Shown piece by piece: positions 14,764 to 57,967 of a DNA stretch of 64,000 nucleotides. The position numbers and the translations under genes were made by a program. This DNA comes from a virus (Duplodnaviria; Caudoviricetes). How positions within the stretch are numbered: position 1 is the first letter of the stretch; each line of letters opens with the position of its first letter. Location: positions 1-64,000 of the IMG/VR virus record IMGVR_UViG_3300014204_000012. One strand, 5' to 3'. A model generated the notes under the pieces. The model saw nothing but the letters and a program-made list of their open reading frames with translations. It was not told where the DNA came from and did no database searches.

Positions 14764-14830
14764 TTTTAGACACTGTTTCTGCAAAGGTATATATTTTATC
14801 AACTTCGGGCAGAAAGTGTCACCACGGGGC
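14764..14830 (-). repeat. Dispersed ~70-bp quasi-palindromic element, copy 1
   Basis: GACACT..N36..AAAGTGTC arms; contains the portal -7 element TACCTTTG (14782-14789). Confidence 0.7.
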
Positions 14831-14850
14831 TGTGGTAGCATGTAGGGGGG

Positions 14851-17166
14851 TTACCACACGTCTATGTAGTCTTCTTCTTCGTAATTTGTCTCCTCCGTTT
14901 TTATCAAACTCGTGTATTGGCTCTTGGCACCCATCAACGCCAACCCGTGTGCCGCCAATCGGTCATACGATCTCATCTCTTCCATACCACGAATATCCTT
15001 ACATTCCTGTAAAAATGGATAAAAGTCTTCGTGCATACCCCGACCTGCAATATAGTCACGTAGTAAATTGAATAAAGTATGTTTTGAACCCTCCAAGTTG
15101 AATACACCGGGTTTCTCCTTGACTTTCCCTGTTCCTATCTCTAAATCATAAAGTAAATAACCACCAAATCCATTACGGATAAAATATTCATACGTGGTGG
15201 GTTCGTTGGTCTCTGGGTACACCATGCCCCCACACCAAATAGCAGTCATTAAAACGTCTTTGTTGAACTCATCGGTATTCCTAACACGATACCGGTATGA
15301 TAAAATGAATTTATAAGTTTGCCAATCATCAATAGATTTTCCCTTATCCACGGTTTCATCATAATTTAACAACGCCGCAATACCACCATCGGAAAGACGA
15401 CTGCCACTACCTGTCTTTTGTAGTTTAATATTTGCCTCCTGTTTATTTGCAAACCGGAATGGGTCAACACCGATTGTTATTATACCCGGATTCTCGGGTC
15501 GGTACATCGGCACGTATTCACCTGCAAATGTGGAATAATAATTGGCAATGATTTTTCTATTTGACGTGGACTTTGGTGGAAAACCAGATATTAACCACCT
15601 GCCATTTTCTTCATCATCTTTCCAACCCACATCACCACCATAAACATCCCTCACAAAATATAAATTTCCCCTGCGTACATTAGACCCCCTACGCAGTTCT
15701 GCCATACGCGTGTCTATGATCTGCATATCGAATCCAATATCACCGGATTCACCCAGAAAACAATCCATGTACTGCATTGGAAATAGTTTCCTTAATTCCC
15801 TATATTTTTCCAATGCGGTGATACTTCCGTCTTTCAACAGGGCATCACGTTCTCCCTGTAAATAAGCATCTGCCGTCTGGGTAAAACCTTCCTCTTTTTG
15901 ATAATCTAACACCTCACCAATTACGGGCATCCCATAGCTATCAATAAATCCATCAACTTCTTCTGCTGCTGATCTGAATAAACGGAACAACCCAGAAAAC
16001 GTCTGACCGCTTGATCCTATTCTTCTATAAAACTTTGATGTTTCACATAAATGACGGAAAGATGAAGAACCTGCTGCCATTTCGTCAACAGTGGATGGAT
16101 GTTCTGCATAACCATGTATTAACATTCCATTTCCCTGAGACAAACAGTTCTTTATAATATCCCACCGTTTCAAAATTTCCTCAGTAATTTTCCCCTCTTC
16201 ATCCAGAAGTGCAAACACAAGTTTCTTCCCATCATAAAATCCCGGTGACATAGTTGTTGCATACGATATTTTAGTGTGCAATCCATCTCCTGTGTAGTCT
16301 GTCTTAGAAATATCAAACTTAATTTCATCAGAACTCCTACCAGACACAGTATATGGTTTAAAAAATATCGGCAATGAATTATAAGAAGCAAGCATTTTGG
16401 ACTTGAACTGTTCAGCAGAGTGATCTCCGTTATAGGACATAAAACCAAATCCATCTGTACCAATGGTTCTCGTCACAACCTCCTCCCCATCACTCATTCC
16501 CTCATTCGTAAATCCCCCTCGTCTGTTTTTGGGCATTATTGGGCCATAACAAAGTCTCCTACCAAGATGTTTCATCTTAAATGTACCATCTGATTCCGGA
16601 ATTGCATAACCATCTTCATCAAGTTTTGCAAAAGTTTCATCGGTAGTATAACAATATTGCCTAAATAAGAACCTTTTTCTTCCAGCATCACGGTAATCCG
16701 GATAATAAATACCCTTGTCTGTATCCATTTTCCAGAAGTTCAAATACATGAAATGCCACCCGGTTATGTACGTGGGTTTTCCATTATTGAAAAACCAATA
16801 CCCGTTTATCCGATGCCACCACATTCTTTTTATCCACGCAATTTCTGTGGTAAATTGGGATTTCCGGTCTTCAAGCATATTCCAAAACCTCTTTTGGATT
16901 TTGTAATACGTGACCACTTTGGTTTTATCTGAATCAAATTCATTCTGTAATGAAGTCAACGCCTCCTCCTCCAACAATACCAACCTACGTGGTATTTCCG
17001 TTCTCTTAAACCGCTGTTCCCTGTGTTGCAAACCAAAACCATCTATAAAAGAATACCCCGGAGGTTTTGGCAACCGGAGTACCATTGGGATAAGGTCTGG
17101 ATCATTGTCATTTACGACAACGTATTTATCGGAATCTAAATACTCACTCGTCTTCGGGTGTTGCAT
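14851..17166 (-). CDS. Terminase large subunit (771 aa)
   Basis: Walker A-like PKNRRGGFT, Walker B LLDEEGK, nuclease ITIGVDPF...DRLAAHG. Confidence 0.9.
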   Translation of the reverse strand: MQHPKTSEYLDSDKYVVVNDNDPDLIPMVLRLPKPPGYSFIDGFGLQHREQRFKRTEIPRRLVLLEEEALTSLQNEFDSDKTKVVTYYKIQKRFWNMLEDRKSQFTTEIAWIKRMWWHRINGYWFFNNGKPTYITGWHFMYLNFWKMDTDKGIYYPDYRDAGRKRFLFRQYCYTTDETFAKLDEDGYAIPESDGTFKMKHLGRRLCYGPIMPKNRRGGFTNEGMSDGEEVVTRTIGTDGFGFMSYNGDHSAEQFKSKMLASYNSLPIFFKPYTVSGRSSDEIKFDISKTDYTGDGLHTKISYATTMSPGFYDGKKLVFALLDEEGKITEEILKRWDIIKNCLSQGNGMLIHGYAEHPSTVDEMAAGSSSFRHLCETSKFYRRIGSSGQTFSGLFRLFRSAAEEVDGFIDSYGMPVIGEVLDYQKEEGFTQTADAYLQGERDALLKDGSITALEKYRELRKLFPMQYMDCFLGESGDIGFDMQIIDTRMAELRRGSNVRRGNLYFVRDVYGGDVGWKDDEENGRWLISGFPPKSTSNRKIIANYYSTFAGEYVPMYRPENPGIITIGVDPFRFANKQEANIKLQKTGSGSRLSDGGIAALLNYDETVDKGKSIDDWQTYKFILSYRYRVRNTDEFNKDVLMTAIWCGGMVYPETNEPTTYEYFIRNGFGGYLLYDLEIGTGKVKEKPGVFNLEGSKHTLFNLLRDYIAGRGMHEDFYPFLQECKDIRGMEEMRSYDRLAAHGLALMGAKSQYTSLIKTEETNYEEEDYIDVW

Positions 17167-17836
17167 TTCCTACAAATCTGATTGGTTCTATTTGATAATC
17201 CCCGTATGGATTGTCTTCTTCAAGTTTACTACCGGTTAACAACCTACTGGCGTAATCCTCCGGTCTCAACTTTAATCTGGTTTCCTCAACCCGGTAATAT
17301 AACTTCTGTTTGAATAATTCTGTTTCTTCGGATAAACCAAACACCCGATCCGACAACTGATCAAGTCTGTTATTTATCAAAGACACCGACTTGATTTCGT
17401 TTACATCACCGGTTCTGCCACCCAACGCATCCAACGTGTACTTTAACAGCATTTCACTCAAGTACACAATTTCTGTCCACACCGGGTTATGAACATACGC
17501 CACGTAGTCCACAACGGCATTTACGAACTCCTCATTCTTACCCAGCAACAAACCGTCGTAACAGGATTCAAAATATGTCTTGCCGTCTTTTTCGACTGTC
17601 CTGAATCCTGATGCCTCACCTGCCTCGTACTTCTTTGCCCACAATCCGATGTCTTTCATTTCAGCAAAGGGACTACGGGGATCATAGAGTAACACAATGA
17701 ACGTGTACACAGCTTTCTTCCCCGGTAACACAAAGTCCCTCTTTAATCCCGGTATCTTCGCCTCAATGTCCCTAACAAACCAGTTTGACATCGGGTTGAA
17801 TGGCAGTTTGCGTAAATCAAGGTCTTTAATGTTCAT
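17144..17836 (-). CDS. Hypothetical protein, terminase small subunit candidate (230 aa)
   Basis: Overlaps the TerL start; position only. Confidence 0.4.
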   Translation of the reverse strand: MNIKDLDLRKLPFNPMSNWFVRDIEAKIPGLKRDFVLPGKKAVYTFIVLLYDPRSPFAEMKDIGLWAKKYEAGEASGFRTVEKDGKTYFESCYDGLLLGKNEEFVNAVVDYVAYVHNPVWTEIVYLSEMLLKYTLDALGGRTGDVNEIKSVSLINNRLDQLSDRVFGLSEETELFKQKLYYRVEETRLKLRPEDYASRLLTGSKLEEDNPYGDYQIEPIRFVGNATPEDE

Positions 17837-18231
17837 TTATTTAATAATTCAGGATTTTCATAAATATTTCCGATAACCTCAGCCCATTCTTCTGGTTGTA
17901 AAATCTCGTAATCTGTTATAAAACAAATTAAGTATTTTAATTCACGCAATGCCCACCCTGCATTTTCCCAGCATACAGTAAACTTTCTTTCTTTGATAAT
18001 ATCACAGTCCGGGTTTCCAACAATAATATCCCCATCATAAATTTCAATTCCATTCTTGTCCTTTAATCCGGTGTATTGGCCTAAAGTATCAGTTCTTATA
18101 TATTCTATTTTTTTACCATCTATACACTGAATAGAATCAATTTCATTGTCTGAATATACAGAATGTGGTAATCCAATAATCCACCTATCTGTTCCCGACA
18201 TTATTGCCCTAAACTTAATTTCTCTGTTCAT
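17833..18231 (-). CDS. YopX-family protein
   Basis: MNREIKFRA..GQYTGLKDKNGIEIYDGDII..EVIGNIYENPELL; start at ATG 18231 (ATGA overlap). Confidence 0.8.
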   Translation of the reverse strand: MNREIKFRAIMSGTDRWIIGLPHSVYSDNEIDSIQCIDGKKIEYIRTDTLGQYTGLKDKNGIEIYDGDIIVGNPDCDIIKERKFTVCWENAGWALRELKYLICFITDYEILQPEEWAEVIGNIYENPELLNK

Positions 18232-18524
18232 TTTTTGTATGTATAAGGGAACAAATAACCTACATTCGACCACCGAGAAAAACAAGAATCCACTATAAGA
18301 ACCCTACCTGTTTCTGGATCAATGTCCTTAATTATTACAACAGTTTTATCACCAAGCATGTTTTTAAAATAACAACGGTCTCCAACAGATGGGTTTTTTC
18401 TCCATTTTTTAGTTTTGTAATAACGGATAGGCAACACCACAATACAATACGGAGAAGATACTACATAATAAACAAAATCTAAAAACAACCCAAACAAATT
18501 TATCAGTAATTCTATAAGTTTCAT
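18228..18524 (-). CDS. Hypothetical protein with hydrophobic N-terminus (98 aa)
   Basis: ORF track; coupled to YopX. Confidence 0.55.
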   Translation of the reverse strand: MKLIELLINLFGLFLDFVYYVVSSPYCIVVLPIRYYKTKKWRKNPSVGDRCYFKNMLGDKTVVIIKDIDPETGRVLIVDSCFSRWSNVGYLFPYTYKK

Positions 18525-22631: not shown

Positions 22632-22830
22632 ATGTTATAAAACACATTAATTCAGATATTCTATTTAAACCAAAAAGGGTTTTTCCCCTGATATCCCTTC
22701 TGGGCGGCAGGTGGTCTGTTAGTTTAGGAAGTACAGTACCAACAGCAGTACAGCGTTTTTAGCTTAATCGCCCCTGTACGACATTTACCGGATGCAACAA
22801 CTCGTAAATCATCAGCACCAAAGCAGAAAC

Positions 22831-22890
22831 CCTAAACCACTTTGGATTTTTATTTGCATACCCCTCCCGATAAACGGCTAAAAGTGTCAC
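22831..22890 (-). repeat. Dispersed element, copy 2
   Basis: Reverse complement reads GACACTTT..GGGGTATGCAAAT..AAAGTGGTTTAGG. Confidence 0.55.
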
Positions 22891-23259
22891 CAATCTTTTT
22901 GTTGTCTGCACACAACGGGATAAGACCTCAAACATAACCCTATGTAATGAGAAACCCCGGAAGACATTTGCCAACCGGGGGAGATATATGAATAATGGTA
23001 TTAAAGCAACTCTTTGCTCTAATGTTTTTAATTCAATTTGTAACCTATATACCATTACTCTTTTTTCTCAGTACAAAGATATAACATTTTATCGAAATAA
23101 AAAATACTTATACAATTTTTTTTACTAAAAAAAACAACGCCATATTGGTCAATACCGACAATGGCGTTGTTAAATGAATATAAAGTAATCTCCTGCAAAG
23201 GTATGTAAAAATATCCTAAATAAAAAATTATATTACATGTTTTAAAACATACGCAAAAA

Positions 23260-26820: not shown

Positions 26821-26893
26821 GCCGGGGTGGAGCAGTTGGTAGCTTATGAGGCCCATAACCTCATGGTCGGTGGTTCGAGTCCATCCCCCGGAA
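26821..26893 (+). tRNA. tRNA-Met(CAT), initiator-like, CCA not encoded
   Basis: Cloverleaf read by eye: D-stem GAGC/GCTT, anticodon stem TGAGG/CCTCA, CAT at 26854-26856, T-arm GGTGG-TTCGAGT-CCATC, 1:72 mismatch, A11-U24. Confidence 0.9.
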
Positions 26894-26973
26894 CTAACGC
26901 ATACTGGGAACGGGTCGGTGAAGTTTAGTAACCGATACCTCCGTATGCAAAACGATAATCTAAAACAACAAAA

Positions 26974-29102: not shown

Positions 29103-29897
29103 ATGGAAGAAGGATTACGATATAACGAAGGTAAGACCAGATACGATCTTCTGCCTCCTTTTGCAGTTGACCAGTGTGCCCGTGTGTTTACCTTCGGTGC
29201 CACAAAGTACGCCGAACGTAACTGGGAGAAGGGCATGAAGTGGAGCAACGTGTTGGCGTCTCTTAAACGCCACATTGCCGCCATTGAACGTGGTGAAGAC
29301 TACGATAGTGAAACCGGTTTGCTCCATGCCGCACACGCCATGTGTAATACTGCGTTCCTAACGGAGTACTACAAAATATACCCCCAGGGTGACGATAGGC
29401 CACATACTTATCTCCACAGGCCAAAGATAGGTCTTGACATTGATGAAATCTTGTCGGACTGGGTGAGGGCGTGGACTGATCACTTTGATATGCCTATACC
29501 AGACTCGTGGAACTTCGACCGTGAAATAAAGGCCAAGTTCGACCAGATGAAAGATAATAAGGAATTCTGGTTATCCATACCCATAAAAACCCAACCTAAA
29601 GACATTCCTTTTGAACCACACTGTTATATTACATCTCGATCAATACCTGTTGATTGGACGATAGAGTGGCTTGATCTTAACGGGTTCCCCACGGCTCCGG
29701 TGTACTCCGTGAAGTTCGGTGAAAGTAAGATTGACGTTGCTAAGTCAAGCGGTATTGACATCTTCGTTGACGACTGCTTTCAGAACTTCGTGGAACTCAA
29801 CAATGCCGGTGTGTGCTGTTTCCTGTTTGACGCACCCCACAACCAGCGTTACGCTGTTGGTTTTAAAAGAATACATTCACTTAGGGAAATTTTATGA
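29103..29897 (+). CDS. dATP/dGTP diphosphohydrolase (DUF5664-like) fused to HAD 5'-nucleotidase (264 aa)
   Basis: GLRYNEGKTRYDLLP..GATKYAERNWEKG..SLKRH..D.ETGLLHAAHA; then GLDIDEIL..YITSR..IFVDD. Confidence 0.8.
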   Translation: MEEGLRYNEGKTRYDLLPPFAVDQCARVFTFGATKYAERNWEKGMKWSNVLASLKRHIAAIERGEDYDSETGLLHAAHAMCNTAFLTEYYKIYPQGDDRPHTYLHRPKIGLDIDEILSDWVRAWTDHFDMPIPDSWNFDREIKAKFDQMKDNKEFWLSIPIKTQPKDIPFEPHCYITSRSIPVDWTIEWLDLNGFPTAPVYSVKFGESKIDVAKSSGIDIFVDDCFQNFVELNNAGVCCFLFDAPHNQRYAVGFKRIHSLREIL

Positions 29898-30039: not shown

Positions 30040-30849
30040 ATGTGTAAAATCATAGCCTGGTGGAGTGCTGGTATTACTTCCTCTGTGGCTTGTAAGATTG
30101 CATTGGAATTGTACCAAAATGTTGAGCTTTATTATATTTATATTGACACAGCACACGAAGATAATGCAAGGTTTAAAGCAGATTGCGAACGCTGGTATGG
30201 TTGCGAAATTAAAACTTTAAAAAGTAAAGAATTTAACAACCAATTTGATGTAATTGAAAAAACAGGAGCCGTAAATACTCCGACAGGTGCGCCGTGTACC
30301 TTGCATTTAAAGAAAAAAGTTCGTTTTGACTTTGAAAGGTTAAACGAATTGAGCCTTTTTAATACCCAAACTATCACGGGTCAGGTTTGGGGTTACGAAT
30401 ATGAACCAAAGGAAATAAACCGTGCAATTAGGCACTTACAACAATATCCAGATACAAAACCATTGTTCCCATTAATTGAAAGGGGATTGACAAAAGAAAT
30501 GTGTGCTGGCTTATTATTAAAAAATGGTATTGAATTGCCTGAAATGTACAAACTTGGCTACTCGAATAATAATTGCATTGGATGCGTGAAAGGAGGCAAA
30601 GGATATTGGAACAAGATTAAAACCGATTTTCCACCTATTTTTAAGCGTATGGCGGATTTAGAACGCAGGGTAGGATATTCATGTATCAATGGTTTATTCC
30701 TAGATGAACTCACGCCAGAAATGGGTAGGGCAAAGCATGAAATAATGCCAAACTGCGGAAATATCTGTGAGGTTGAATTTGCAGATATTCCAGATAAAAA
30801 CTTGCAGGAAATATTGTCAGGTCGTAAAAGTATTTACGAAATTGCTTAG
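30040..30849 (+). CDS. PAPS-reductase-like adenine nucleotide alpha-hydrolase (269 aa)
   Basis: Divergent PP-loop WWSAGITS; APCTLHLKK; NNNCIGCVKGGKGYW. Confidence 0.75.
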   Translation: MCKIIAWWSAGITSSVACKIALELYQNVELYYIYIDTAHEDNARFKADCERWYGCEIKTLKSKEFNNQFDVIEKTGAVNTPTGAPCTLHLKKKVRFDFERLNELSLFNTQTITGQVWGYEYEPKEINRAIRHLQQYPDTKPLFPLIERGLTKEMCAGLLLKNGIELPEMYKLGYSNNNCIGCVKGGKGYWNKIKTDFPPIFKRMADLERRVGYSCINGLFLDELTPEMGRAKHEIMPNCGNICEVEFADIPDKNLQEILSGRKSIYEIA

Positions 30850-32864: not shown

Positions 32865-32935
32865 CCTTACAATCAACGATCGTACTAAAGTGACACAAAT
32901 ACCCACTTCGTACGTTAAAGTCGTCATACAGCCCC
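32865..32935 (-). repeat. Dispersed element, copy 3
   Basis: Reverse complement GACGACTTT..AAGTGGGTATTTGTGTCACTTT..TTGATTGTA. Confidence 0.6.
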
Positions 32936-32997
32936 ACAGTGCCCCCAGAATGGCGATATGTTTGACAGCATAAACACGTAAAATAGTTATTGAATTG

Positions 32998-33057
32998 TTT
33001 GCACGTGTGAAAACTTGTTTGTTAATTTGATTCATAATTTAAAAACTTATACAAATG
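32998..33057 (+). promoter_or_regulatory. Early promoter/leader TTTGCACGT-N15-TTAATTTGATTCATAATTTAAAAACTTATACAAATG
   Basis: Near-duplicate at 34768-34827. Confidence 0.75.
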
Positions 33058-33920
33058 AAATGTACTGCTTACGGTTGCAAACATGAAGCAACGAGAGAAA
33101 TAAAAACATTATGGGGAAAAAAAGAGGTGATTGGATTCTGTGAAAAACACACCCCTAATTTTCTTACTGATCTTAAAATCGGTGAAATATCACAGCCGTC
33201 AACGGTGTGTGGAATTACGCAAAGTTGGTATCAAAGAGTTAAATAATCATTAAAATTTACTGATATGAAAAATTTAAGTAAACTATCAAAAAAAGCAACG
33301 GAGTTCTGCGAACTGTCAGGGTTCGACGTTGACGCCGTGAAGTCGCATATGAGATACGGTTGTTTTAATATTCAGAAATGCGAAACGAAAAAAGAGATGA
33401 AGGACGCCGGTGTTGATTTTTCTTATCCCTATGTAATCTGGAATCCTTACAGTTTATCTTTAACCGATTAAAATAAAACAAGATGGAAACTTTTGAATTT
33501 AATGGATTGTATTTTTATGAAGGAACGTCAGAAGGCGTAATGAAAGTTATCTGCAACAATTTACACGGGGATCGTCTCCGTATCTGGTTTGGTGACAAAG
33601 TTACCGGTAAAAGCTGGGACGAGGAGAACGATGTTTGCGGTTACATTGGAAGAACGACAGGAAATAAACCTATATCCATCCTGTTAAATAATCAACAGAG
33701 TTCCGGGGGAGGTGCGATTTTAACGAATTGTATTGTTAAGATTGTAAACACGAAGACGAAACGGGTTTTATATCAGCATCCCAACTTTTCACAGTCTTTG
33801 TTTACCGCCGTTGGTTGTTCTGTATTACAAGACGGAGACACATTTGCACCCAACTGTAAAAGCGAAGTTTCAGCTCAAAGATTAGCCGACTTTATGAACG
33901 GTAAAAGAATGTCAAAATAA
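33055..33920 (+). other. Early-type CDS 33055-33246, 33265-33471, 33483-33920
   Basis: Small ORFs after the conserved promoter, ended by terminator 33946. Confidence 0.65.
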
Positions 33921-33945
33921 CACAAAACAAACAACAATTTAAACG

Positions 33946-33969
33946 AGCCGGGTAATACCGGCTTTTTTA
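33946..33969 (+). terminator. Intrinsic terminator
   Basis: AGCCGG-GTAATA-CCGGCT plus TTTTT. Confidence 0.85.
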
Positions 33970-34109: not shown

Positions 34110-34166
34110 TGGATTTGTTAGAGCGGATAAATGTATGTCTTCAGGGTGAAAGTGGCCGTAAAGGGC
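34110..34166 (+). repeat. Dispersed element, copy 4 (left arm degenerate)
   Basis: GGATAAATGTATGTC..GGTGAAAGTGGCCGTA; matches 36176-36191 at 15/16. Confidence 0.6.
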
Positions 34167-34767
34167 TGTGAATAGGCTTAAATCGGCTAATTTACGTTGT
34201 CTCTTTGGTGCTCAAAAAGGTGTTTATGGCTTTTGACCCCCTGGTTTTATGTCTGCAAACTGAATGAACAAACTTTGTTCATAACTGTTAGTTTGTTGTT
34301 AGTTCGTTTTCATTGTGAGTTGAATAATTATCTCATTGTGAACTATTAATTGAATTCTTTCCAATGTTTAGTTCATATATTAATCACTATCAAAAAGTTA
34401 TCGGAGTAAACACGGTATGCAACCCTGTTTGAGTTCATCCGACGCCCCCACCCCCTATCCTATCTGGTCTGTTTATAGTTATAAAAGGGGATGTTTAGGG
34501 AAAAATACACACGGTGCACACTTCGCCACCTGGATAACCTCGTCAAACTTTCGAATATTTCAACAATTTTGTTTTGAGAAATGTAGCTACTATAAATATA
34601 GTAGTTCAGCATTAGATATTAAGTAAGTAAGTAATATAATAATATATTTAAAATATAATATAAATAAATATAATATATATATATAAACACTGTATTTATT
34701 TCTTTTCTTTATGTCACTTTCTTTTCTTTGCACATGTTTTATAACACAAAAAATAATCACCAAAATA

Positions 34768-37317: not shown

Positions 37318-38118
37318 ATGAAAACAAATAATTTCAAATTGTTTAGGGTTTTATTATTGGCTGGTTTATTAAAGGAAAATATTAGGCGTGCTGACCTGAG
37401 CGGTGCTAACCTGGGAGGTGCTAACCTGAGCGGTGCTGACCTGAGCGATGCTAACCTGAGCGGTGCTGACCTGAGCGATGCTAACCTGAGCGATGCTGAC
37501 CTGGGCGGTGCTAACCTGAGCGATGCTAACCTGAGCGATGCTAACCTGAGCGGTGCTAACCTGAGCGGTGCTAACCTGGGAGGTGCTAACCTGAGCTATG
37601 CTAACCTGAGCGATGCTAACCTGGGCGGTGCTAACCTGAGCTATGCTAACCTGAGCGGTGCTAACCTGAGCGGTGCTGACCTGAGCGATGCTAACCTGAG
37701 CGATGCTGACCTGGGCGGTGCTAACCTGAGCGGTGCTAACCTGAGCGATGCTAACCTGAGCGGTGCTAACCTGAGCGGTGCTATTTATGACGAACATACG
37801 TATTGTGTTTGCATAAACTGTCCCGAAGAAGGTTCTTTCATTGCATACAAGAAAGCACATGAAAAAATTGTTAAGTTACTTATCCCGGAAAAAGCTAAAC
37901 GTAGTTCTGCCACCTCCTTAAAGTGCAGGGCTAGCAAGGCTACGTGTTTGGAAATTGAAGGTGGATTAACAGAGGTTTCCTCTGATTACGATTCTAATTT
38001 TATTTATAGAGTAGGGGAAACGGTTGAGGTTACTGACTTTGATGAAAACCGTTGGAAAGAATGTTCCACTGGGATACATTTTTTTATGAACCGGGAACAA
38101 GCAAGACAATACTTATGA
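37318..38118 (+). CDS. Pentapeptide-repeat protein with DUF5758-like C-terminal domain (266 aa)
   Basis: 26 A(N/D)L(S/G)x repeats; C-terminus [24 protein letters not shown]. Confidence 0.9.
37390..37779 (+). repeat. 26 x 15-bp tandem repeat GCT(A/G)ACCTG(A/G)G(C/A)(G/T)(G/A)T
   Basis: Counted from sequence and translation. Confidence 0.95.
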
Positions 38119-42600: not shown

Positions 42601-43013
42601 CCGGCATCCATTGATTATCCTGATTCCGTAAAGTTGAATCTGGATTGTCTGGATAAGGCAATTCAGATAACGACGGTGTGTTTGACTGTGGACAACGACG
42701 GCAACCCGGTGAAATTAAACCGGAAGACATTGTATCAGTTGGCAGAAGACATTAGGAAATGGGCGAAAGGAGAAACGGTATGAAAACGGAATTAATTGAA
42801 TGTAAAGGAAAACATATACACGCGAGTGAAACAAAAATTGGAGATTTAATGATTCTATATTACGGAAGCGATCATGTAGGAGAAATCTTGTTACGTGTTT
42901 ATGAGGGATTGGTTTCTTTGTCTAATCCACGTAATACGTGGGTTGGTGTACCATATGAACTTTTGGTCACTTTATTAGAACCCGGAGACAAAGTGACTCT
43001 AACACAGGAATAA
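39696..43013 (+). other. Hypothetical CDS 39696-40223, 40242-40631, 40656-41195, 41206-41610, 41737-41961, 41828-42361 (NinB-like?), 42358-42783 (OB-fold/SSB-like?), 42780-43013
   Basis: ORF track; fold guesses are low confidence. Confidence 0.6.
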
Positions 43014-44119
43014 TGATAGCAATTACTCAAATTTTAGACATATCGTGCAGGCTCTTCGGTGTAACCACAGAAGACGTGAAGGGTAAGAGCCGGGAGGGTA
43101 CACCCCTGATGGTTCGTCATTTGGTGAGGGCGTTGGCATCCGAAAAAGGATACAAACCAACAGAGATAGCTGATGAAATTGGTGGATCGAGATATGCTGT
43201 GTATAACTCCGTGAAACTGATTTTAAAGTTCTGTCAGTTCCATGAACAATGCAACACGCTCCGTGATGCCATTGATGCGTTCGTTCCGGAAGTTCCTATT
43301 AAGCCAGTTGAGAAACCTGTTGAAATCATACAAACCCGTGACGACAGCGGTATTATCCGGGTAACACAGGAGGCGTATGATGAGAGGTTTTATGGTCACA
43401 ACGAGAAGATAAACCCACGTACCGGGAATAAGTGGTTCCCTGCCTTTCACTACCTGTGGAGTGCAGGTGCCCCGATGAGTCCGTTTCTGGTGAGTTGGTA
43501 CAAAGAATACGGACACGAGGCCGACCGAATTATGAAACATAAGGAACAGATCGGATCGTTTGTGCACGACCGGATTGAGCAAATGGGAAAACACCATATC
43601 CCCACGACCATTGAAAACATTGAAAACTTCTGCCGGGATGAAGGTGACGTTTTATTCATTAAACGCTGTCTGGACGGGTTCTTGAACTTTATGAAAGACC
43701 ATGATTCCGTGATTGTGTCTTCTGAAAAGATGATACTTGGCGAAGACTGGGGAGGCACAATGGACTTGGAACTCAGAATCAGTGACGATAAATGGAGCAA
43801 GGTCTGGTGTGTGGATTTGAAAACATCGAAGTCGGTATTCGAGGAACATCTGATTCAGGTTGAAACATACCGCCGGGTGTGCGGTGCTGATCGTGGCGGG
43901 GTGTTGATACTGGGGAACTCAACAAAGAAACGCTACACCTTTACGGAGATTCCAGTCAAGAAACAGGACTATCTTTATTCAAAGTTCCTTGCTGTTAAGG
44001 AAACAGCCTATGTGACGATGCTTGAAAGGGGAACCATAGCACCGACAGAAGAAACATTCCCCAGTGAATTTAATCTTAATCCAGAGAATTATGAAATTGG
44101 GAATAGACTTACCACTTAG
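43013..44119 (+). CDS. DnaA domain IV-like HTH fused to PD-(D/E)XK exonuclease (368 aa)
   Basis: N-terminus FGVTTEDVKGKSRE..VRH..EIADEIGGSRYAVYNSVK; C-terminus GGTMDL..VDLKTS..IQVETY. Confidence 0.7.
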   Translation: MIAITQILDISCRLFGVTTEDVKGKSREGTPLMVRHLVRALASEKGYKPTEIADEIGGSRYAVYNSVKLILKFCQFHEQCNTLRDAIDAFVPEVPIKPVEKPVEIIQTRDDSGIIRVTQEAYDERFYGHNEKINPRTGNKWFPAFHYLWSAGAPMSPFLVSWYKEYGHEADRIMKHKEQIGSFVHDRIEQMGKHHIPTTIENIENFCRDEGDVLFIKRCLDGFLNFMKDHDSVIVSSEKMILGEDWGGTMDLELRISDDKWSKVWCVDLKTSKSVFEEHLIQVETYRRVCGADRGGVLILGNSTKKRYTFTEIPVKKQDYLYSKFLAVKETAYVTMLERGTIAPTEETFPSEFNLNPENYEIGNRLTT

Positions 44120-44355: not shown

Positions 44356-44880
44356 ATGAAATCAGATTACGCCTCAAACGAGGAATGGTTGTTTAGTCTA
44401 TGGTTGGAATCCGTTGCGGACTACATTGACCACGCGATTTACCAACCAGGATCGTATATATTATTCGCTGGTGATGGTGTGTTTAGGGAACACGTTTATA
44501 CCGCCGACTGGGAGATTTTATGGCGTCCCAGTGCCGAAGGGGTACTTTATACCACCCCGGGGGAGAAAGTGGCTGTAAAACGACGTAGGGAGGTCACAGT
44601 GCCATTTGTAGCCAATCCATCTGTCATTGATGTAAAGGGCGAGTTCGTGGGAAAGAACAATTCATCTGGCATAACATTCCCGGTGAACCAAAAGTGGGTA
44701 ATGGACAAGTACGGGGTGTATGTTCACAAGGTCGTAATCAGCTTTGCAAAGAAAGGGCTGTTTTACCGAACATTTGTGCCGGAATCTGTAAAGGAAAATT
44801 CAAATTACGTACGAAGTGGACTGACGAAGTTCAAATACGAAACACGAAGTTTTGATGAATACTTAAAATTGGTAAAATGA
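44356..44880 (+). CDS. PD-(D/E)XK endonuclease, resolvase/DUF1064-like (174 aa)
   Basis: YASNEE..YTADW..IDVKG. Confidence 0.6.
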   Translation: MKSDYASNEEWLFSLWLESVADYIDHAIYQPGSYILFAGDGVFREHVYTADWEILWRPSAEGVLYTTPGEKVAVKRRREVTVPFVANPSVIDVKGEFVGKNNSSGITFPVNQKWVMDKYGVYVHKVVISFAKKGLFYRTFVPESVKENSNYVRSGLTKFKYETRSFDEYLKLVK

Positions 44881-48309: not shown

Positions 48310-48800
48310 ACAAAATATTTAATGTATTTCTGTGGTATTTGTTTAATCAATGCTTGTCTTATTTCAGACTTTTCAATATCGGTATCTTTATTTATATCGA
48401 ATAATGGATTTTGTTTCGCCACAATGTCATTGGGTATCCTGAACGAATCCGGTTTACCAACCGCAGCAGGCCAAAATATCATACAATAAAGATCAACAAA
48501 ATCCTTGTATTTGTTTCTATGTGGGGAAAGATATTTTTTAACATATTCAAGTTGTTCTACGTTTGTCATTGCTTTAAGTTTGTCCGTAGTAGTTCCTAAT
48601 ACGATTGCTGTTTTTGGCATGAATTGGATGAGACCAGTTGCACCTATTTTATTTTGTATTGTGTGATCGAGTGTATGTGATGTTTCAAACCACATTAAAA
48701 AAAGTAAGTGATTGGGGTCTACTCCTAAATATGAAGAAATCTGAACAACTTTATCCAGAAACTCTTTTTTATTCTCTTTTATCAATTCTTCAAATATCAT
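48306..48800 (-). CDS. Endolysin, lysozyme-like/lytic transglycosylase fold (164 aa)
   Basis: MWFETS..GATGLIQFMPKTA..EQLEYVKKYL..DLYCMIFWPAA; own -7 box 48810-48817. Confidence 0.8.
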   Translation of the reverse strand: MIFEELIKENKKEFLDKVVQISSYLGVDPNHLLFLMWFETSHTLDHTIQNKIGATGLIQFMPKTAIVLGTTTDKLKAMTNVEQLEYVKKYLSPHRNKYKDFVDLYCMIFWPAAVGKPDSFRIPNDIVAKQNPLFDINKDTDIEKSEIRQALIKQIPQKYIKYFV

Positions 48801-48885
48801 TTTTTATTTCAAAGGTAGGTTTTATTTCCGTAACGGGTTTAAAATGGTGCAATGTGGAAATATTTGATGTTATAAAACATAAACG

Positions 48886-48917
48886 CTTGCAGATGTCAAA
48901 AATTGTTTATACCTTTG
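48886..48917 (+). promoter_or_regulatory. Promoter CTTG-N20-TACCTTTG
   Basis: Canonical spacing; divergent from the endolysin promoter. Confidence 0.7.
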
Positions 48918-48945
48918 TACTGTTCTTTGAATGTCATGGTTACAC

Positions 48946-49009
48946 GCACCATATGTGTTGGTACAGGACTGAAATAATAGGTCTTCGGAACCGAAATCCG
49001 AATGGTGCA
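48946..49009 (+). ncRNA. tRNA-like structured RNA candidate
   Basis: 7-bp GCACCAT/ATGGTGC stem contiguous with TCGGA-ACCGAAA-TCCGA arm, plus two internal hairpins. Confidence 0.4.
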
Positions 49010-49024
49010 CAAAATACTTTCACA

Positions 49025-49306
49025 ATGGACAAAATTGACAACGCAATAAAGGCGTTAATAAACAAACAACTCGAAAAGTACAACGTGGACTTCGACTACG
49101 TTATGGATCACCAGCAAATTGATGGTAAACTTTGGTGTTATTATTTCACTTTAACGAAGGATGAAGATGAAGCATTCCGGAAGTGGGCTATTGAATATCT
49201 GCGTAAAACATTCCACTGGCAGAAACAATATGCAGAGAAGGAGTTCTCTTGGTATTACCTAATGTACGGGCTTAATGTGTCACCAGACGTTACTACAGCC
49301 CCGTAG
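49025..49306 (+). CDS. Hypothetical protein (93 aa)
   Basis: ATG 49025 after the promoter and RNA fold; the track's upstream extension overlaps the endolysin. Confidence 0.65.
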   Translation: MDKIDNAIKALINKQLEKYNVDFDYVMDHQQIDGKLWCYYFTLTKDEDEAFRKWAIEYLRKTFHWQKQYAEKEFSWYYLMYGLNVSPDVTTAP

Positions 49307-49367
49307 GGACACTTTCGCCATGGAGACGATAAATTACACCAACAGCAAAGAAAATCGCCTTAAAGCG
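49298..49367 (+). repeat. Dispersed element, copy 6
   Basis: GCCCCGTAGGGACACTTT matches the reverse complement of 14813-14830 at 16/18. Confidence 0.7.
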
Positions 49368-49569
49368 TTTAAGGTGGCAAAAGTAAGCATCAGCGTTAAA
49401 ATCAAACTTGATAAAATATGGAGACTGTCAAAGAAGTTCGCTACTATATTCCGAAGAAGGGGTTCAACTGCTTAACGGGGTGGTACGAGAAAAAAGACCC
49501 AAAGGGCAAGGACGATGCGATCCGGGTGGCGAAAATAGTAAGAATTAACGGTAAACAAACAATTCAATT

Positions 49570-51108
49570 ATGAAAGAACAACTCATTGATTTAGCGAAAA
49601 AGAATGGTTTTGCAACCAAAGTGATAAATTCCATGCCTTACTCAAAGAGTGCCCCGTGGTTTCATTTAGAAGTTACACGGTATTTCCTATGGATGTGTGA
49701 AATTCAGAAATGGTTGATAGAAAAACACAACATTGTTGTCTGTGTCGAATTTGAAACCATTGACGATTCTGAAACCGCCTATACGTGGAATATTACAGAA
49801 CACATAACAGAGGGTAGGGGAATGGCAAAGGATACATGGGACTTTTATAAAAGAACCGATTCTTTTTCACAACATTTTATGTGGTGGAAAACATACGAAG
49901 AATCATTGGAAGATGGATTAATCAAAGCATTAAAACTTATAAAATGAAATTATTTAACAAGAAACTTAATTTATCCAGTGACGATGTGTTGGCGTGTGAG
50001 GACTACGCACAACTCAAATACTGGTATTCCTGTGTGGAAATTGACATACTGGAAATGGAATTACGCCTAAAGGGTGAAGACAACGACCGGGTGTACCAAG
50101 CTATGTCCTTGCAGAAGTCGCTTTCAAAACTCATCCAACTTCAAATATCGAAAGTTGGTAAACCGGTTAGGTTTGAAAAGTACGTCATTGATGTTTGCAA
50201 GGAGTTGTTTGTTGACAAGTGGGATGTGATTATTGAACGTGCCCGTGCTAAGAAGGAATTGGAGGAACTGTAATGGATCATTTCGATAATGTTTTGATAA
50301 AGTTGCAACGGCAGTATAGTAGAGACGAAACCGTTGCGGCTTTAACGAAGAAACTTAAAGAAACTGAAACCAGAGTTGGACAACTGGAATCGGAGGTCGA
50401 TTATCTAAATTCAGAATATGAGGTTGAAAAAGAAAAGAGAGAGATAATCAGGATGTCTAAAATAGAGGCACGTAAAGAAGAACTTTATAGAAGACAAAAT
50501 GATAAGATTAAACAGTATCGTTCCGCAATTAAGAAGTTAAAACAACAGCGGAATGATTTAATTGCAAAATGTATTTCATTTGAAAAAAAATAAATAATTA
50601 TGGGAAAAAAACAACTACCAGATTGGCTTGAAACATTATACAACGTGAACCCGTGTTTAGCTGAACGGGCAGAAAAACATCTGAATAAACTGTATTCGGA
50701 GGACGATCTTATTAGTTTTGCCGCGTGGTGTATCATAAATAAATACAATAATGCCCAATATGGTCATATACCAACAGATTACGAACTTATTGAAATGTGG
50801 AAGAAATCAAAAAAAATATGAAAAAACAATCTAAAACATACAGCATTAGCAGTGGCCTGTTTGCACCAGTTGTTCGTTTTTTCGGATTAAAAGGTTCGTG
50901 GAAGTGGGCTGTAAAAGAAATGAAAAATGGTAAATTGCTTGTAAGAACGTGCGTGACAGGTGCGATAAAATACAGATTAAGCACAGACGGACAAAATAGA
51001 CTCGAATGTGATTTTCACAGAAAAGAAAGCGAAGCGAAGTGGGAAAACGCTAATTTTTTCATTTCTGACATGGAAGCTACTGATTGGGGTATTTATAATT
51101 GGGGATAA
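49570..51108 (+). other. Hypothetical CDS 49570-49947, 49944-50273, 50273-50593, 50600-50821, 50818-51108
   Basis: ORF track. Confidence 0.65.
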
Positions 51109-54517: not shown

Positions 54518-54534
54518 CCCGGTTTTATCAAATG

Positions 54535-54567: not shown

Positions 54568-54568
54568 G

Positions 54569-54635
54569 TTTTAAGACACTTTGCGACTACAATATACAAA
54601 TACCCCACTTAACGTAGATAATTGATTGTAGAGCC
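54569..54635 (-). repeat. Dispersed element, copy 7
   Basis: Reverse complement AAGTGGGGTATTTGTAT..AAAGTGTCTTAAAA resembles copy 5. Confidence 0.7.
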
Positions 54636-54647
54636 TCTCACACGCAT

Positions 54648-54860
54648 CTACGGGGCTTTGGGGTCTTTACTTATGAGTAGCAATAACGCCGCAATAACAG
54701 AACCCACATAGAGGATAATATCACCGGTGTCAATACCGAAGAAATCCTCCGGTTTGATACCACACAGCCGCAACACAATTACGAATATCATTGCGATACC
54801 CATTCCGGTAGTCAGTTTACTGCCACCGATGTTCCCAAGTGTTGACCTGTCCAGTTTCAT
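54648..54860 (-). CDS. Two-TM holin-like protein (70 aa)
   Basis: Two hydrophobic segments, basic C-terminus KDPKAP; ATGA overlap at 54860. Confidence 0.55.
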   Translation of the reverse strand: MKLDRSTLGNIGGSKLTTGMGIAMIFVIVLRLCGIKPEDFFGIDTGDIILYVGSVIAALLLLISKDPKAP

Positions 54861-57841
54861 AATCCCGATGAATACCAAGTCCCAACACCACCAACCATAC
54901 GATACACCAAGCGATACGCACCATAGTATCCATTTGTATCGAGTAAATTGTACACATCGAAGTTCTGTGTAGCCACATCTGGATCACCGGGATCGTCAAG
55001 GGTTATCACCACCCGCATATATGTCGGATAGAAATAATGACGTGAAGCTATTAAATTCACATAGTCATACGTCGGACACAAGTCCAATACTTCCTCGTGC
55101 ATACCGCCACCGTAGTTGGCGTACCTACCCTTATACGACACGTATGCGGTTATGCTGTCCTGAGTGAGAACAGTACGTGTCCACGAACCATCAGATAATG
55201 ACCACGCACCAACCTTAAATGTTCCATTGAAATCGGTAAGATTATAGAATGCTGTCGTATTGGGAACATCTAATGTTGACGGAGCCGTACCACAGGTATT
55301 AGCTATGGAATCGGTGTATCCGTCTACGGTCTTCTGTAACAGGATTTGTATGGTGTAATTCGGATCGTCGTAGGACACATTTGTTGTGTCGTAATGCGTG
55401 TACATCTTCGGATACGTCACCGTTGTTCCGTCACCACAAAGTGCATTTGAAGACGCCGAGAACATCAACAGTTTGTAGTGGTTTACATTCTCCGGGTCAC
55501 TGGAATACGATGTCATTTTCGTACTTGCCAATACAGTAAGCATCGAGTTCTTAAACAGATTGTAGTCGGTAAGGTTACGAGCCACCAGTTTAACCGTATC
55601 ACTTGACTTGATATAAGAGATGGAATCGGTGAATGTCCGGCAACTATATCCCGAAGACGGAGTTTCCAACCACGCACAGTTTACATTCCTATTAAGGGAT
55701 ATTTTGAAGTCATTACCCCAACGGTTAGATGTGGGAACGTAAGTCATGTTTGTTGCCCACCCGGATGTTTCAAAGATGTAATGCTGTACGTCATTCTGGA
55801 TGTGTGCTGACTTATTTGAATAGGTTAAATCATAAGTCCCTGCTGAACCGTTCCACACCATCGTTATTGCTGCCGTGGTGTCAATAGTCTGGTAGTCCTT
55901 TTCAAATGGTGTACACAGGTCGAAGTCCAGAGTGTCCAAGCATTTCCATGACAACCTCCAGTTGGTATTCGTGGAATACGGATCAATCTTGAACTTGATC
56001 TTATCCCCTGTGGCAACTGTTGGGAGTGTCGTTATCTTATTGAAGTACGATGAATATATATTGTGAAGTGGGAAGTTATAAGCACCATAAGCCGTACCCA
56101 CCTGCCATGTCTCCAATAGGGTTTCAGTGGCTCCGTGGACAAAATAAACCCTTAAAGTGTCTATAACGTTCTCACCATAGAAGAACCACGGCACATAAGA
56201 AGTCGTCGCATCCAAGTCCATCGAAATCTCCCTGGTGGGGAGTTCGTCGGTATTCAACTCATAAGAATACGACACCGAATGTTCGTAGGCAATAGCTCCT
56301 TCCGTGTATCCACTTCCGTTATCACAGATATAAGCTGCTGACACCACATCCGAGAGACAGGTGGCAAGATCTGGACTGTATGTACCCTGTTGTGTATAGG
56401 CAGAGACGTATTTCTCACCATTTACATACACCCATCTGATCACAGGGGTATAGGTTCCGCTAACTACAGGCATAGCACTCGTAAACGGCTGTAACACGTA
56501 ATTGGTTATCCCTGCACCACTGGTGGCCGTGGTGAACTTAAATACGCCCCCCACATACCAGTCAATAACATAGTCACCCACCGTGGCTGTGGTGGAAGAC
56601 AAGTCACCGATGTCAAGGTGTCCCACAGTCGGAACTATATCAGCGAGGTACAAGTTGGCAAAGTCACACATCTGAGCGGTAACAGTAACAGTGTCGCAAG
56701 GTGCAATAATGTCACAGATGTTCTTCCATCCAAAGTCACAGTCTGCATTGCTCAATTTGACAAGCACCTGACCTGCTAAACCACCCGGGGGAACGGGACA
56801 GCCATTGAGGGAGACGATAACACTGTCTGAACCTATCTTAATGTCTATTAAACTATCACCCTCCTCAACGTATAGCACGTGGTTATTGAACACTGTATCA
56901 ATGTCGCCATCATTCGCCACTATCCAATACACGGAATCCAGATCAGCAGTTCCACTTGACGTATTGATGTGTACCTTCCGGTGTCCTCCTGCACTCACAT
57001 CGTACACGGGAACCCAATCAAGAGTGTCGTAAGTTGAAGTGGTTAGTTCAGGAATGTCCATGTTCACAATCACGTTCCCGCTGGAGCTAAAGTAACCACC
57101 ACCACCAAGTCCAATCCCTGCTGTCACACTTAGTTTAGTGGGATCAAAAGCAAGTACAATGGTGTGATCGGTGTTGTTCAGACTTATCGCCATGAAAGCC
57201 GAATCCACATCAATTCCCCGGAAGTAGAATACATTGTCTGTGGTATTGTTCCACACCCCTATTCCTTCGTGGTTGCCATTCTGAGCATCGTAGAACCCTG
57301 CTGAATCAAACACCTGTGTAATCGGTATCCAATATGCCTTACCGTTTATGTTTTGCAGTATATCCCCGGAGACACCGTCTGTGGCATTTAGTTTCGTTAT
57401 CCTCAGTGAATCCCCGTCAAGAAAATAAAAGTTATTTGTGTTTATGGAATCCTCCACTTCCAGTGAGTTCATCACATGAACATCATACACGTTTGTATTG
57501 TATATTCCACCGTGAGTGTCCCTTTTCCACAGGGGATCGAGTAAGTCGAGAATCTTCAATACTTTCCAATTATACTTTACGTTATTGGACACTCTAATGT
57601 AGTTGTCACCTGTAACCCATAGCTTGTGCCAGTTAATTGAATCGGAACTGAACTGATGGTAGGTAACATCGAGAACCGGAATTATGGTATCCCGGTATGC
57701 AAAGTAACTTTGTGAGAACAGTGTGTCCCGTGCCATAAGGTTTCTATCATAGTCCCCTACGGTCAATGTGGATGGTGACACCACTGCCTGACCAAATCCA
57801 ATCACGGGTATAAATAACAACAAAAACAAAAGTCTTTTCAT
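54857..57841 (-). CDS. Large signal-peptide-bearing Cys-rich fibre/adhesin-like protein (994 aa)
   Basis: Start at ATG 57841: MKRLLFLLLFIPVIGFG|Q; fibre motif PPGGLAGQVLVKLSNADCDFGW; 14 Cys. Confidence 0.7.
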   Translation of the reverse strand: MKRLLFLLLFIPVIGFGQAVVSPSTLTVGDYDRNLMARDTLFSQSYFAYRDTIIPVLDVTYHQFSSDSINWHKLWVTGDNYIRVSNNVKYNWKVLKILDLLDPLWKRDTHGGIYNTNVYDVHVMNSLEVEDSINTNNFYFLDGDSLRITKLNATDGVSGDILQNINGKAYWIPITQVFDSAGFYDAQNGNHEGIGVWNNTTDNVFYFRGIDVDSAFMAISLNNTDHTIVLAFDPTKLSVTAGIGLGGGGYFSSSGNVIVNMDIPELTTSTYDTLDWVPVYDVSAGGHRKVHINTSSGTADLDSVYWIVANDGDIDTVFNNHVLYVEEGDSLIDIKIGSDSVIVSLNGCPVPPGGLAGQVLVKLSNADCDFGWKNICDIIAPCDTVTVTAQMCDFANLYLADIVPTVGHLDIGDLSSTTATVGDYVIDWYVGGVFKFTTATSGAGITNYVLQPFTSAMPVVSGTYTPVIRWVYVNGEKYVSAYTQQGTYSPDLATCLSDVVSAAYICDNGSGYTEGAIAYEHSVSYSYELNTDELPTREISMDLDATTSYVPWFFYGENVIDTLRVYFVHGATETLLETWQVGTAYGAYNFPLHNIYSSYFNKITTLPTVATGDKIKFKIDPYSTNTNWRLSWKCLDTLDFDLCTPFEKDYQTIDTTAAITMVWNGSAGTYDLTYSNKSAHIQNDVQHYIFETSGWATNMTYVPTSNRWGNDFKISLNRNVNCAWLETPSSGYSCRTFTDSISYIKSSDTVKLVARNLTDYNLFKNSMLTVLASTKMTSYSSDPENVNHYKLLMFSASSNALCGDGTTVTYPKMYTHYDTTNVSYDDPNYTIQILLQKTVDGYTDSIANTCGTAPSTLDVPNTTAFYNLTDFNGTFKVGAWSLSDGSWTRTVLTQDSITAYVSYKGRYANYGGGMHEEVLDLCPTYDYVNLIASRHYFYPTYMRVVITLDDPGDPDVATQNFDVYNLLDTNGYYGAYRLVYRMVGGVGTWYSSGL

Positions 57842-57855
57842 AATTCTATTTTGTA

Positions 57856-57863
57856 CAAAGATA
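57856..57863 (-). promoter_or_regulatory. -7 element TATCTTTG
   Basis: 14 nt upstream of ATG 57841. Confidence 0.65.
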
Positions 57864-57867
57864 ACAC

Positions 57868-57913
57868 AAAAAGAAATGCCCCTGTGGGCTCCTGAGAGAC
57901 CCGTAGAGGCATT
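57868..57913 (-). terminator. Long hairpin terminator
   Basis: AATGCC..GGCATT closing stem, T-rich tail on minus strand. Confidence 0.65.
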
Positions 57914-57967
57914 ATCTTCTGAAGTTGATAATTTGTTCACCTGTACCCAAAAACACCCGTACAGGCG
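57900..57967 (+). repeat. Dispersed element, copy 8
   Basis: CCCGTAG..GAAGTTGATAA (11/11 with the reverse complement of copy 1)..CCCGTACAGGCG. Confidence 0.6.

Follow-up and report, generated by a model that had tools for sequence, protein, structure and literature searches.

Genome setting of the element

We describe a dispersed DNA element in an uncultured tailed phage, IMG/VR record IMGVR_UViG_3300014204_000012. The stretch analysed, hereafter the window, is 64,000 nucleotides (nt) long and corresponds to bases 1–64000 of a single source contig of 80,012 nt. Since the last 123 nt of this contig repeat its first 123 nt, the assembly is circular. The element is asymmetric, 55–70 bp long and organised around a CACTTTC box, and it recurs in this genome as a family of nine supported copies. 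Three genes are needed to place them:

12347–14752, minus strand: portal gene
14851–17166, minus strand: TerL gene
68824–76578 of the genome, outside the window: giant virion-type open reading frame (ORF) of 2584 amino acids (aa)

Gene calls were our own and ORF-based, leaving 6.6% of the genome non-coding. TerL is only 25–27% identical to the TerL proteins of cultured Flavobacterium, Cellulophaga and Maribacter podophages in INPHARED, and it has many metagenomic relatives; a search of INPHARED by DNA gave no match. Late genes are preceded by promoters of the host Bacteroidota type, in which a GC hairpin and a T run are followed after ~20 nt by TAyCTTTG, with a further 10–30 nt to the ATG. No ORF of the phage contains an RNA polymerase motif. 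A promoter for a virion or phage RNA polymerase is thereby ruled out, and the timing of gene expression must run through the host polymerase and phage factors.

A repeat family with nine supported copies

A preliminary description of the window had listed eight copies of a quasi-palindromic element, and all eight quoted strings are present letter for letter at their positions and on their strands. In the orientations chosen there, the copies are only 33–59% identical to each other. A clean alignment emerged once every copy was turned so that a CAG..CCGTAG block stood on the 5′ side and the CACTTTC box came after it. We scored the copies by leave-one-out profile search with nhmmer, in which the profile was built without the copy being scored. 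This gave 17.9 bits for F1, 23.3 for F2, 23.3 for F3, 30.1 for F4, 18.3 for F5, 16.5 for F6 and 16.2 for F9 (copies as listed below). The best match in 20 shuffled genomes reached at most 14.6 bits, compared with 16–30 bits for the supported copies, and the best score in 1.4 Mb of unrelated real DNA, with pattern matches masked, was 10.4–12.9 bits. A sequence-only Infernal model (R1) found the nine sites at 35–46 bits, and no other position in the genome exceeded 12.4 bits.

Direct self-comparison points the same way. Positions 57879–57928 match 74586–74537 with 76% identity over 50 nt, which pairs F3 with a copy inside the giant gene (self-BLAST E=1e-3), and positions 14792–14837 match 49336–49291 with 76% identity over 46 nt. 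The word GACACTTT occurs 10 times where 3.3 occurrences are expected, a count reached in 0 of 100 shuffles. Chance similarity is excluded by the leave-one-out scores, the pairwise similarities and the shuffled and real-DNA nulls: the repeat family is real. The supported copies are F1, F2, F3, F4, F5, F5′, F6, F9 and F10; they are listed here with associated features and the weaker candidates.

14778–14849, minus strand: F1, between the TerL stop and the portal start, sense; R1 45.8 bits
14782–14789, minus strand: host-type −7 box of the portal promoter (TACCTTTG), 22 nt downstream of the F1 box
34116–34185, minus strand: F6, in a ~900-nt non-coding early region, antisense to the local genes; R1 37.8 bits
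36114–36175, plus strand: F5′, half of an inverted pair, sense, upstream of gene 36250–36471; nhmmer 19.5–30.7 bits, R1 37.0 bits
36145–36217, minus strand: F5, inverted partner of F5′, antisense; R1 35.1 bits
44538–44590, minus strand: F10, antisense inside ORF 44356–44880
49287–49340, plus strand: F2, in the 111-nt gap between the probable genes 49028–49306 and 49418–49573, sense; R1 36.9 bits
57879–57946, plus strand: F3, long form, between the holin-like and fibre genes, antisense to both; R1 42.9 bits
57876–57912, minus strand: hairpin of the F3 upstream blocks, fold z about −2.6 to −3.2
Giant ORF, aa 663–686, outside the window: F4, sense, in a Pro/Glu-rich linker
Giant ORF, outside the window: F9, antisense
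32889–32943, minus strand: F8, degenerate or partial, with the box and downstream block only
54596–54656, minus strand: F7, degenerate, just after the stop of gene 54648–54860, with the middle block inverted
22831–22890, minus strand: unsupported candidate, 2.8 bits, inside ORF 22759–23055

Five of the eight entries first proposed as one family (14764, 34110, 36127, 49298 and 57900) thus hold, two (54569, our F7, and 32865, our F8) are degenerate, and the eighth (22831) drops out, sharing with F1 little beyond the 10-mer word GTGACACTTT. F7 scores 1.3 bits in the leave-one-out search, with pairwise z of 2.9–4.1 against F3, F4, F5 and F8; F8 gives no leave-one-out match, with pairwise z of 4.8 against F5′ and 3.2 against F7. 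We retain both as degenerate members because of this weak similarity to several members (z 3–5). Two further entries needed correction: the copy at 34110 (F6) lies on the strand opposite to the one given, and the entry at 36127 is not a single copy but two overlapping inverted ones (F5′ and F5), with one match per strand. Three members inside ORFs had not been listed, namely F4 and F9 in the giant gene beyond the window and F10 within it. A profile built without F10 gives it 16.2 bits, and its pairwise z is 4–9 against six members.

Six of the nine fall within non-coding DNA, which makes up only 6.6% of the genome (p about 6e-6); the other three are inside ORFs. A cluster of three to four copies occupies the non-coding early region, with an AT-rich repeat beside it. 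At F2, the stop codon of the upstream gene falls inside the CCCGTAG block. F7 and F3 are inverted relative to each other on either side of the fibre gene, as the crossover sites of a Gin/Cin- or shufflon-type inversion system might be; F7 belongs to the family only weakly, and none of the scanned ORFs gave a recombinase domain. On the minus strand, a T run comes after the F3 hairpin, and after it the −7 box of the fibre promoter (57856–57863), an arrangement that reads as a putative terminator-plus-promoter cassette.

An asymmetric motif without a shared fold

The alignment resolves the element into six blocks, from 5′ to 3′:

Block 1 (5′ end): CCCCGT-type, optional, in the long form only
Block 2: CAG..CCGTAG, or inverted CTACGG or TTTACGG variants
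Block 3: box G-CACTTTC-nCC, nearly invariant and with the highest information
Block 4: GAAGTTG-like
Block 5: TA-rich hexamer, 16–17 nt after the box
Block 6: (T/C)ACC, 20–22 nt after the box

A TA-rich hexamer 16–17 nt after the box is found in most intergenic copies across genomes and is absent at the site in the giant gene. The conserved blocks show no helical periodicity, and a core-only position matrix gave no wider set of sites above noise.

The outer inverted arms to which the preliminary description had attached its quasi-palindrome are not a feature of the family. Pairs of GACACTTT and AAAGTGTC spaced 28–44 nt apart are exact only at 36137–36187, where the perfect arms are created by the overlap of F5′ and F5. 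Allowing one mismatch per arm adds only 14769–14820, and shuffled genomes give 0–3 such pairs. In the closely related contigs L060 and L059, the right arm of F1 is, respectively, changed without compensation and absent. RNAalifold finds no consensus structure, and covariation gives no support to a hairpin: the one candidate stem, between the box and GAAGTTG, shows 62% pairing, just as shuffled controls do, and a single compensatory change. Folding is a property of individual copies. The inverted pair at 36114–36217 forms a strong palindrome (z=−5.1); F1 and F3 give better folds than shuffled sequence, and the upstream blocks fold significantly in F3 only. Terminal inverted repeats or a palindromic body of the MITE, REP or RPE kind are likewise lacking in the alignment, which is asymmetric. 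The family is defined by its primary DNA sequence and not by a fold. The earlier proposal of a folded single-stranded DNA (ssDNA) or RNA element is thus not borne out; that of a protein recognition site is, as far as can be told, consistent with a motif of this kind. Of the other early proposals, module-shuffling recombination draws on hints of exchange between copies, with no recombinase among the ORFs scanned, about half of the total, and a packaging or nucleoid role is conceivable.

Several other identities were considered and set aside. In an Rfam scan only the tRNA-Met passed the threshold, and the sole overlap with the element was a chance-level isrC match (E=1.3), in agreement with the initial failure to recognise a named family; nothing indicated a tRNA or tmRNA. 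F3 and F4 share a reading frame, as a peptide-coding repeat would, but mismatches between them show no excess at third positions, and a stop codon interrupts that frame in F1. Look-alikes of sigma-54, IHF, Fur, ops/RfaH and DnaA-box sites, judged by eye, either do not fit all copies or are not significant.

Conservation at the TerL/portal junction

We compared the genome with about 20 kb of sequence from two close metagenomic relatives, L060 (TerL 82% identical) and L059 (74%). Both carry the element at the same TerL/portal junction; the assemblies of the two relatives are GCA_002049725.1 and ERZ27256810. The spacer is about 78% identical in L060 and about 68% in L059, compared with 50–52% and 39–44%, respectively, at codon position 3 of the flanking genes. 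Being more alike than these near-saturated positions, the spacer is under purifying selection, which is strongest from the box onward. In the window it is ~40 nt longer than the spacer of a further relative, L061 (57 nt), which has no upstream blocks.

The F1 box precedes the portal −7 box by 22 nt, in the stretch taken up by the T run in other late promoters, and so occupies the place expected for the −33 element of the portal late promoter. The −7 box itself is also present in relatives without the element. This promoter-like geometry and the conservation in relatives had both been missed by the preliminary description.

The two arms of F1 have different affinities. The right arm follows orthology (42/55), while the left arm is identical to the paralogue F2 at 21 of 30 positions and to its own orthologues at only 10/30 and 16/30, a pattern that copies exchanging sequence could produce, as could constraint confined to the blocks. 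A second copy in L059 occupies a non-orthologous position, beside genes absent from the window and ~1.9 kb from a synteny break, where the contig ends. L059 also carries a DUF559/PvuRts1I-like endonuclease gene (L059 4288–4914), a DUF3310 gene and a gene for a DnaG-type primase; tblastn found no counterpart of these in the window's genome. Gene content near the strand switch turns over quickly.

Wider relatives and a conserved site in the giant gene

A TerL profile search recovered 21 IMG/VR loci with 36–53% TerL identity, and the TerL/portal spacers of these loci have the T run and −7 box only, without upstream blocks. R1, whose E-values are rough, was run on 15 relatives' records, many of them fragments. 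Six of the 15, with TerL identities of 42–53%, contained 1–3 sites each at 12.6–20.9 bits:

G001: 20.9, 17.1 and 12.9 bits
G003: 17.8 and 12.7 bits
G005: 15.6 and 12.6 bits
G008: 14.5 and 13.4 bits
G006: 12.6 bits
G012: 12.6 bits

Five of the six intergenic matches are followed by the start of a same-strand ORF 4–358 nt downstream, in one case a homologue of a structural gene; for G003:48411 the scan found no such ORF. In the cross-genome alignment, CAGC.., the box and GATAAAATATACC are in register with F1, F2 and F5′. At G008:15142, an inverted box lies about 34 nt downstream.

Three further matches (in G003, G005 and G008) fall in the orthologous giant gene at the position of F4, just after a domain that aligns to aa 205–693 of the window phage's protein with 31–33% identity. 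At this linker site, four lineages share ten invariant bases, GTAGAGCCAC, followed by TCTCC, within DNA that is otherwise ~50% identical. The Val, Glu, Pro and Ser codons are identical in all four, for which the chance, given each lineage's own codon usage, is ~1e-6 or less. Selection at this site therefore acts on the nucleotides and not only on the peptide PVEP(L/P)SP. A second, similar block lies exactly 21 nt upstream in three of the four lineages, forming direct repeats of the CCC-R-Y-R-GAG type.

F3, F9 and F4 share the spacer between their two upstream blocks, and the F4 orthologues in other lineages lack it. This lineage-specific spacer indicates that F3 and F9 were copied recently from the F4 version, or F4 from theirs. 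A search for homologues of the 598-aa fibre-like protein, meant to lead to the F3 locus in relatives, gave none that was close. Pattern scans of IMG/VR gave single chance matches only, as did a scan of GTDB genomes among the matches listed, where no host-borne family was seen.

A candidate transcription-control box

We assign a probability of about 0.5 to the reading that the element is a DNA-level transcription-control box for host RNA polymerase and a phage factor, expanded in this lineage. Two observations lead to it: the phage has no polymerase of its own, and at the portal gene the box stands in place of the −33 T run. A core of approximately RAG-(A/C)CACTTTC-TC would be bound by a putative phage-encoded factor, or by host polymerase modified by such a factor. 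In intergenic copies, the box, a TAnAAT-like hexamer and the TACC block would together provide a −35/−10-like or −33/−7-like geometry, and at the TerL/portal junction the box would take the −33 position of a host-type late promoter. The box itself is old and under selection, standing before genes and at one fixed site in the giant gene, with a ~65-bp version copied to at least nine places in the window's lineage. Some of the antisense and intragenic copies might make antisense RNAs, while others might only bind the factor or be inert. Protein binding, promoter activity and the existence of the phage factor are what we infer from this arrangement.

Several observations weigh against a promoter function. 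Five of the nine supported copies (F3, F5, F6, F9 and F10) are antisense to local genes, leaving F1, F2 and F5′ as sense copies together with F4, which is sense within its ORF; three of the nine are inside ORFs (F4 sense, F9 and F10 antisense). F4 and its orthologues are the best-conserved site of all, and since they lack the TA-rich hexamer at the right distance, the box there is no complete promoter. A full host-type TAnnTTTG box is present at F1 and its orthologues only. The plus-strand block of ~30 kb contains 2–3 sense copies, too few to be its sole promoters. Nine of the 15 relatives' records have no match, and several of the matches, at 12–13 bits, come close to the noise ceiling. When ~60 ORFs, about half of the total, were scanned against Pfam and PHROG, no regulator emerged beyond a weak DnaA-type helix-turn-helix (HTH) on an exonuclease. 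Nor do the copies resemble the stoperator-type repressor sites of cluster A mycobacteriophages, which are short, asymmetric, uniformly oriented relative to transcription and matched by a repressor gene: their orientation is mixed, the element is 55–70 bp long, and the ORFs scanned include no repressor.

The history of the copies suggests a different emphasis, in which a ~65-bp cassette derived from the giant-gene site has spread selfishly or by recombination, through homeologous exchange or a mobilising enzyme, being tolerated between genes and in permissive coding loops, and most copies have no function of their own. We consider this unlikely, although the distribution is in its favour: there are 9–11 copies here and 0–3 in relatives with 42–53% TerL identity, they stand in both orientations, and those inside ORFs occupy the Pro/Glu-rich linker and a hypervariable loop. 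The lineage-specific spacer shared by F3, F9 and F4 points to recent copying, and the non-orthologous copy in L059 and the resemblance of the F1 left arm to its paralogue agree with spread. The phage also encodes a recombination exonuclease (ORF 43013–44119, PHROG 298), and a passage in PMC2327257 describes Lambda Red-type systems as recombining diverged short homologies. A mobile element is harder to reconcile with the missing terminal inverted repeats and with the lack of target-site duplications, as judged by eye. The ORFs scanned include no transposase or site-specific recombinase, and the bacterial genome scan, among the matches listed, showed no host-borne source. In a 20-sequence family alignment of ORF 44356–44880, F10, whose box lies in the hypervariable loop, adds no length to its protein. 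At F1 and F4, the box and the blocks downstream of it are far better conserved than neutral evolution would predict, which means that at least some copies are functional.

On a further reading, a conserved phage protein would bind the box, primarily at the location inside the giant gene, which could be related to origin, packaging or entry, and the surrounding 65 bp would have been copied in one lineage; this too we regard as improbable, if conceivable. Were the site to have escaped from the giant gene in this way, a gene-internal cis element would act as a small mobile cassette in a lytic phage and would seed new promoters, antisense promoters and in-frame coding insertions.

Quite unlikely, in our estimate, is a site for some other DNA-transaction protein, such as an iteron-like initiator, the small terminase (a pac site) or an HTH-exonuclease that loads there. 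The intragenic site would be primary and the intergenic copies accessory or autoregulatory. Origin iterons of phage lambda lie within gene O, and the direct repeats of the giant-gene site, 21 nt apart in three of the four lineages, likewise occupy a linker-coding segment. Mixed orientation is unproblematic for sites of this type, and the 3–4 copies in the non-coding early region beside the AT-rich repeat would suit an origin. ORF 43013–44119 joins the exonuclease to a weak match to the DnaA C-terminal HTH (aa 5–61, E=5e-5, below the Pfam cutoff), making it a candidate sequence-specific DNA binder. However, the copies are scattered genome-wide and not clustered, and no initiator gene was identified. 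The downstream block agrees with a DnaA box at 7 of 9 positions, which is not significant (estimated p about 0.05–0.16), and GC skew was dropped as a guide to the origin since it tracks gene strand only. Most of the relatives' intergenic copies precede a same-strand ORF, which fits promoters better.

A structured RNA or ssDNA element with 8-nt outer arms (a hairpin promoter, processing site or terminator) is highly improbable: the palindrome of the inverted pair, the folding of F1 and F3, the inverted box of G008:15142 and the sense orientation of most relatives' copies speak for it, but there is no shared fold, arms pair at two sites only, Rfam gives nothing and half of this genome's copies are antisense.

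Neighbouring genes

The giant ORF has no Pfam or PHROG match. It contains at aa 949–1157 (genome 71700–73700) a domain with a HExxH-like motif, 36% identical to P0128, and this metalloprotease-like domain of ~200 aa is the only part it has in common with polyvalent-type proteins. Several other giant phage proteins with the domain carry polyvalent-protein Pfam domains. Several relatives' TerL proteins (P0011, P0012, P0042 and others) are ~1110–1170 aa long with Hint and LAGLIDADG (intein) domains, which the window's TerL lacks.

In the early region, an 86-nt segment is duplicated with 77% identity at 32973–33058 and 34743–34828. Both duplicates have a −33 TTTG and a −7-like box and lie directly upstream of two early-gene cassettes; from these signals, they are probable early promoters. 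Between 33921 and 34824, ~900 nt contain no convincing ORF but a bidirectional terminator hairpin (33945–33964), copy F6 and the AT-rich repeat (34611–34690), and this region could be a non-coding RNA region or an origin.

Elsewhere, ORFs 29103–29897 and 30040–30849 encode a MazZ-like dATP/dGTP diphosphohydrolase N-terminal domain (PF18909, 8e-33) beside a weak PAPS-reductase-like protein, and the pair may form a DNA base-modification or nucleotide-pool module. The gene at 37318–38118 encodes a pentapeptide-repeat protein with a DUF5758 domain, which could be a DNA mimic, and its DNA gives a 15-nt periodic repeat. A tRNA-Met (CAT) gene at 26821–26894 separates the plus-strand block from a minus-strand gene that has a late-type promoter of its own.

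Around F2, ORF 48638–49306 looks non-coding in its N-terminal part, and the probable gene there encodes 92 aa from a start near 49028; ORF 49418–49573 appears genuine, its end overlapping the next start. For the fibre gene (54857–57841), the probable start is 57841, downstream of a promoter of its own, and not 58000. For annotation, small ORFs called across elements (49275–49475, and the fibre-gene start at 58000) are probably wrong.

Implications

Regulatory signals of uncultured Bacteroidota phages are almost unknown, save for the host −33/−7 promoter and one crAss-like example. The element described here provides a concrete cis element for a group of podophage genomes of ~60–80 kb. The box could mark a temporal gene class and lead to a factor that redirects host polymerase. 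It is also a case in which a short non-coding motif imposes synonymous-site constraint inside a structural gene, and its lineage-specific multiplication bears on the spread of phage regulatory cassettes and the formation of genome mosaics.

Comparison with known systems

The closest parallel by description is the Cellulophaga crAss-like phage phi14:2, which has an extended tripartite middle-promoter motif with −35/−10-like blocks. The motif lies upstream of the portal and other genes, with some matches in coding regions and a few antisense, and is conserved in related phages; nearly all intergenic matches are sense, and transcript 5′ ends have been mapped (bioRxiv 10.1101/2020.03.07.982082). 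Both are Bacteroidota phages with a long multi-block motif, and both use host polymerase for middle and late genes. In contrast to phi14:2, half of the copies in our genome are antisense or intragenic, no virion RNA polymerase motif is present, and TerL is not close to crAss-like TerL; the likeness is one of description.

Halovirus HF2 has ~7 Class I intergenic repeats of 58 bp, in which conserved blocks are separated by variable positions. These are intergenic, occupy positions conserved within the genus and have been shown to carry promoters, and long counter-transcripts exist (PMC8707807). HF2 differs in being an archaeal virus with archaeal promoter signals and repeats of unrelated sequence, which are not reported inside genes; its promoter activity was measured, whereas that of our element is only inferred. 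Two features of the phi14:2 and HF2 type of promoter motif, a repeated intergenic multi-block motif of ~50–60 bp and the conservation of motif and positions in related viruses, are found here, the latter at F1 and the giant-gene site.

PeSL cassettes of T4-like phages combine an early promoter with a conserved stem-loop, co-oriented with transcription; they lie at gene-cassette borders and can be recombination points between otherwise unrelated DNA (PMC2839356, PMC4122927). Our element resembles them as a short composite regulatory repeat, some copies of which adjoin terminator hairpins and flank early-gene cassettes. It differs in having no consensus structure, and hence no PeSL-type conserved stem-loop next to a promoter, as well as in its mixed orientation and intragenic copies.

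Rickettsia palindromic elements are ~100–150 bp long, palindromic, found in frame inside genes and demonstrably insertions. They are similar to our family as short dispersed repeats with copies inside ORFs at permissive positions and in either orientation. In our family, by contrast, there is no palindrome, F4 is ancient and orthologous across lineages, and F10 adds no length.

In the middle promoters of phage T4, which are present in many copies, a MotA box recognised by a phage factor takes the place of the upstream hexamer, with a constant spacing to the host-type element downstream. The likeness to our element is one of mechanism only; the sequence and spacing of the box differ, and no MotA- or AsiA-like proteins were identified here.

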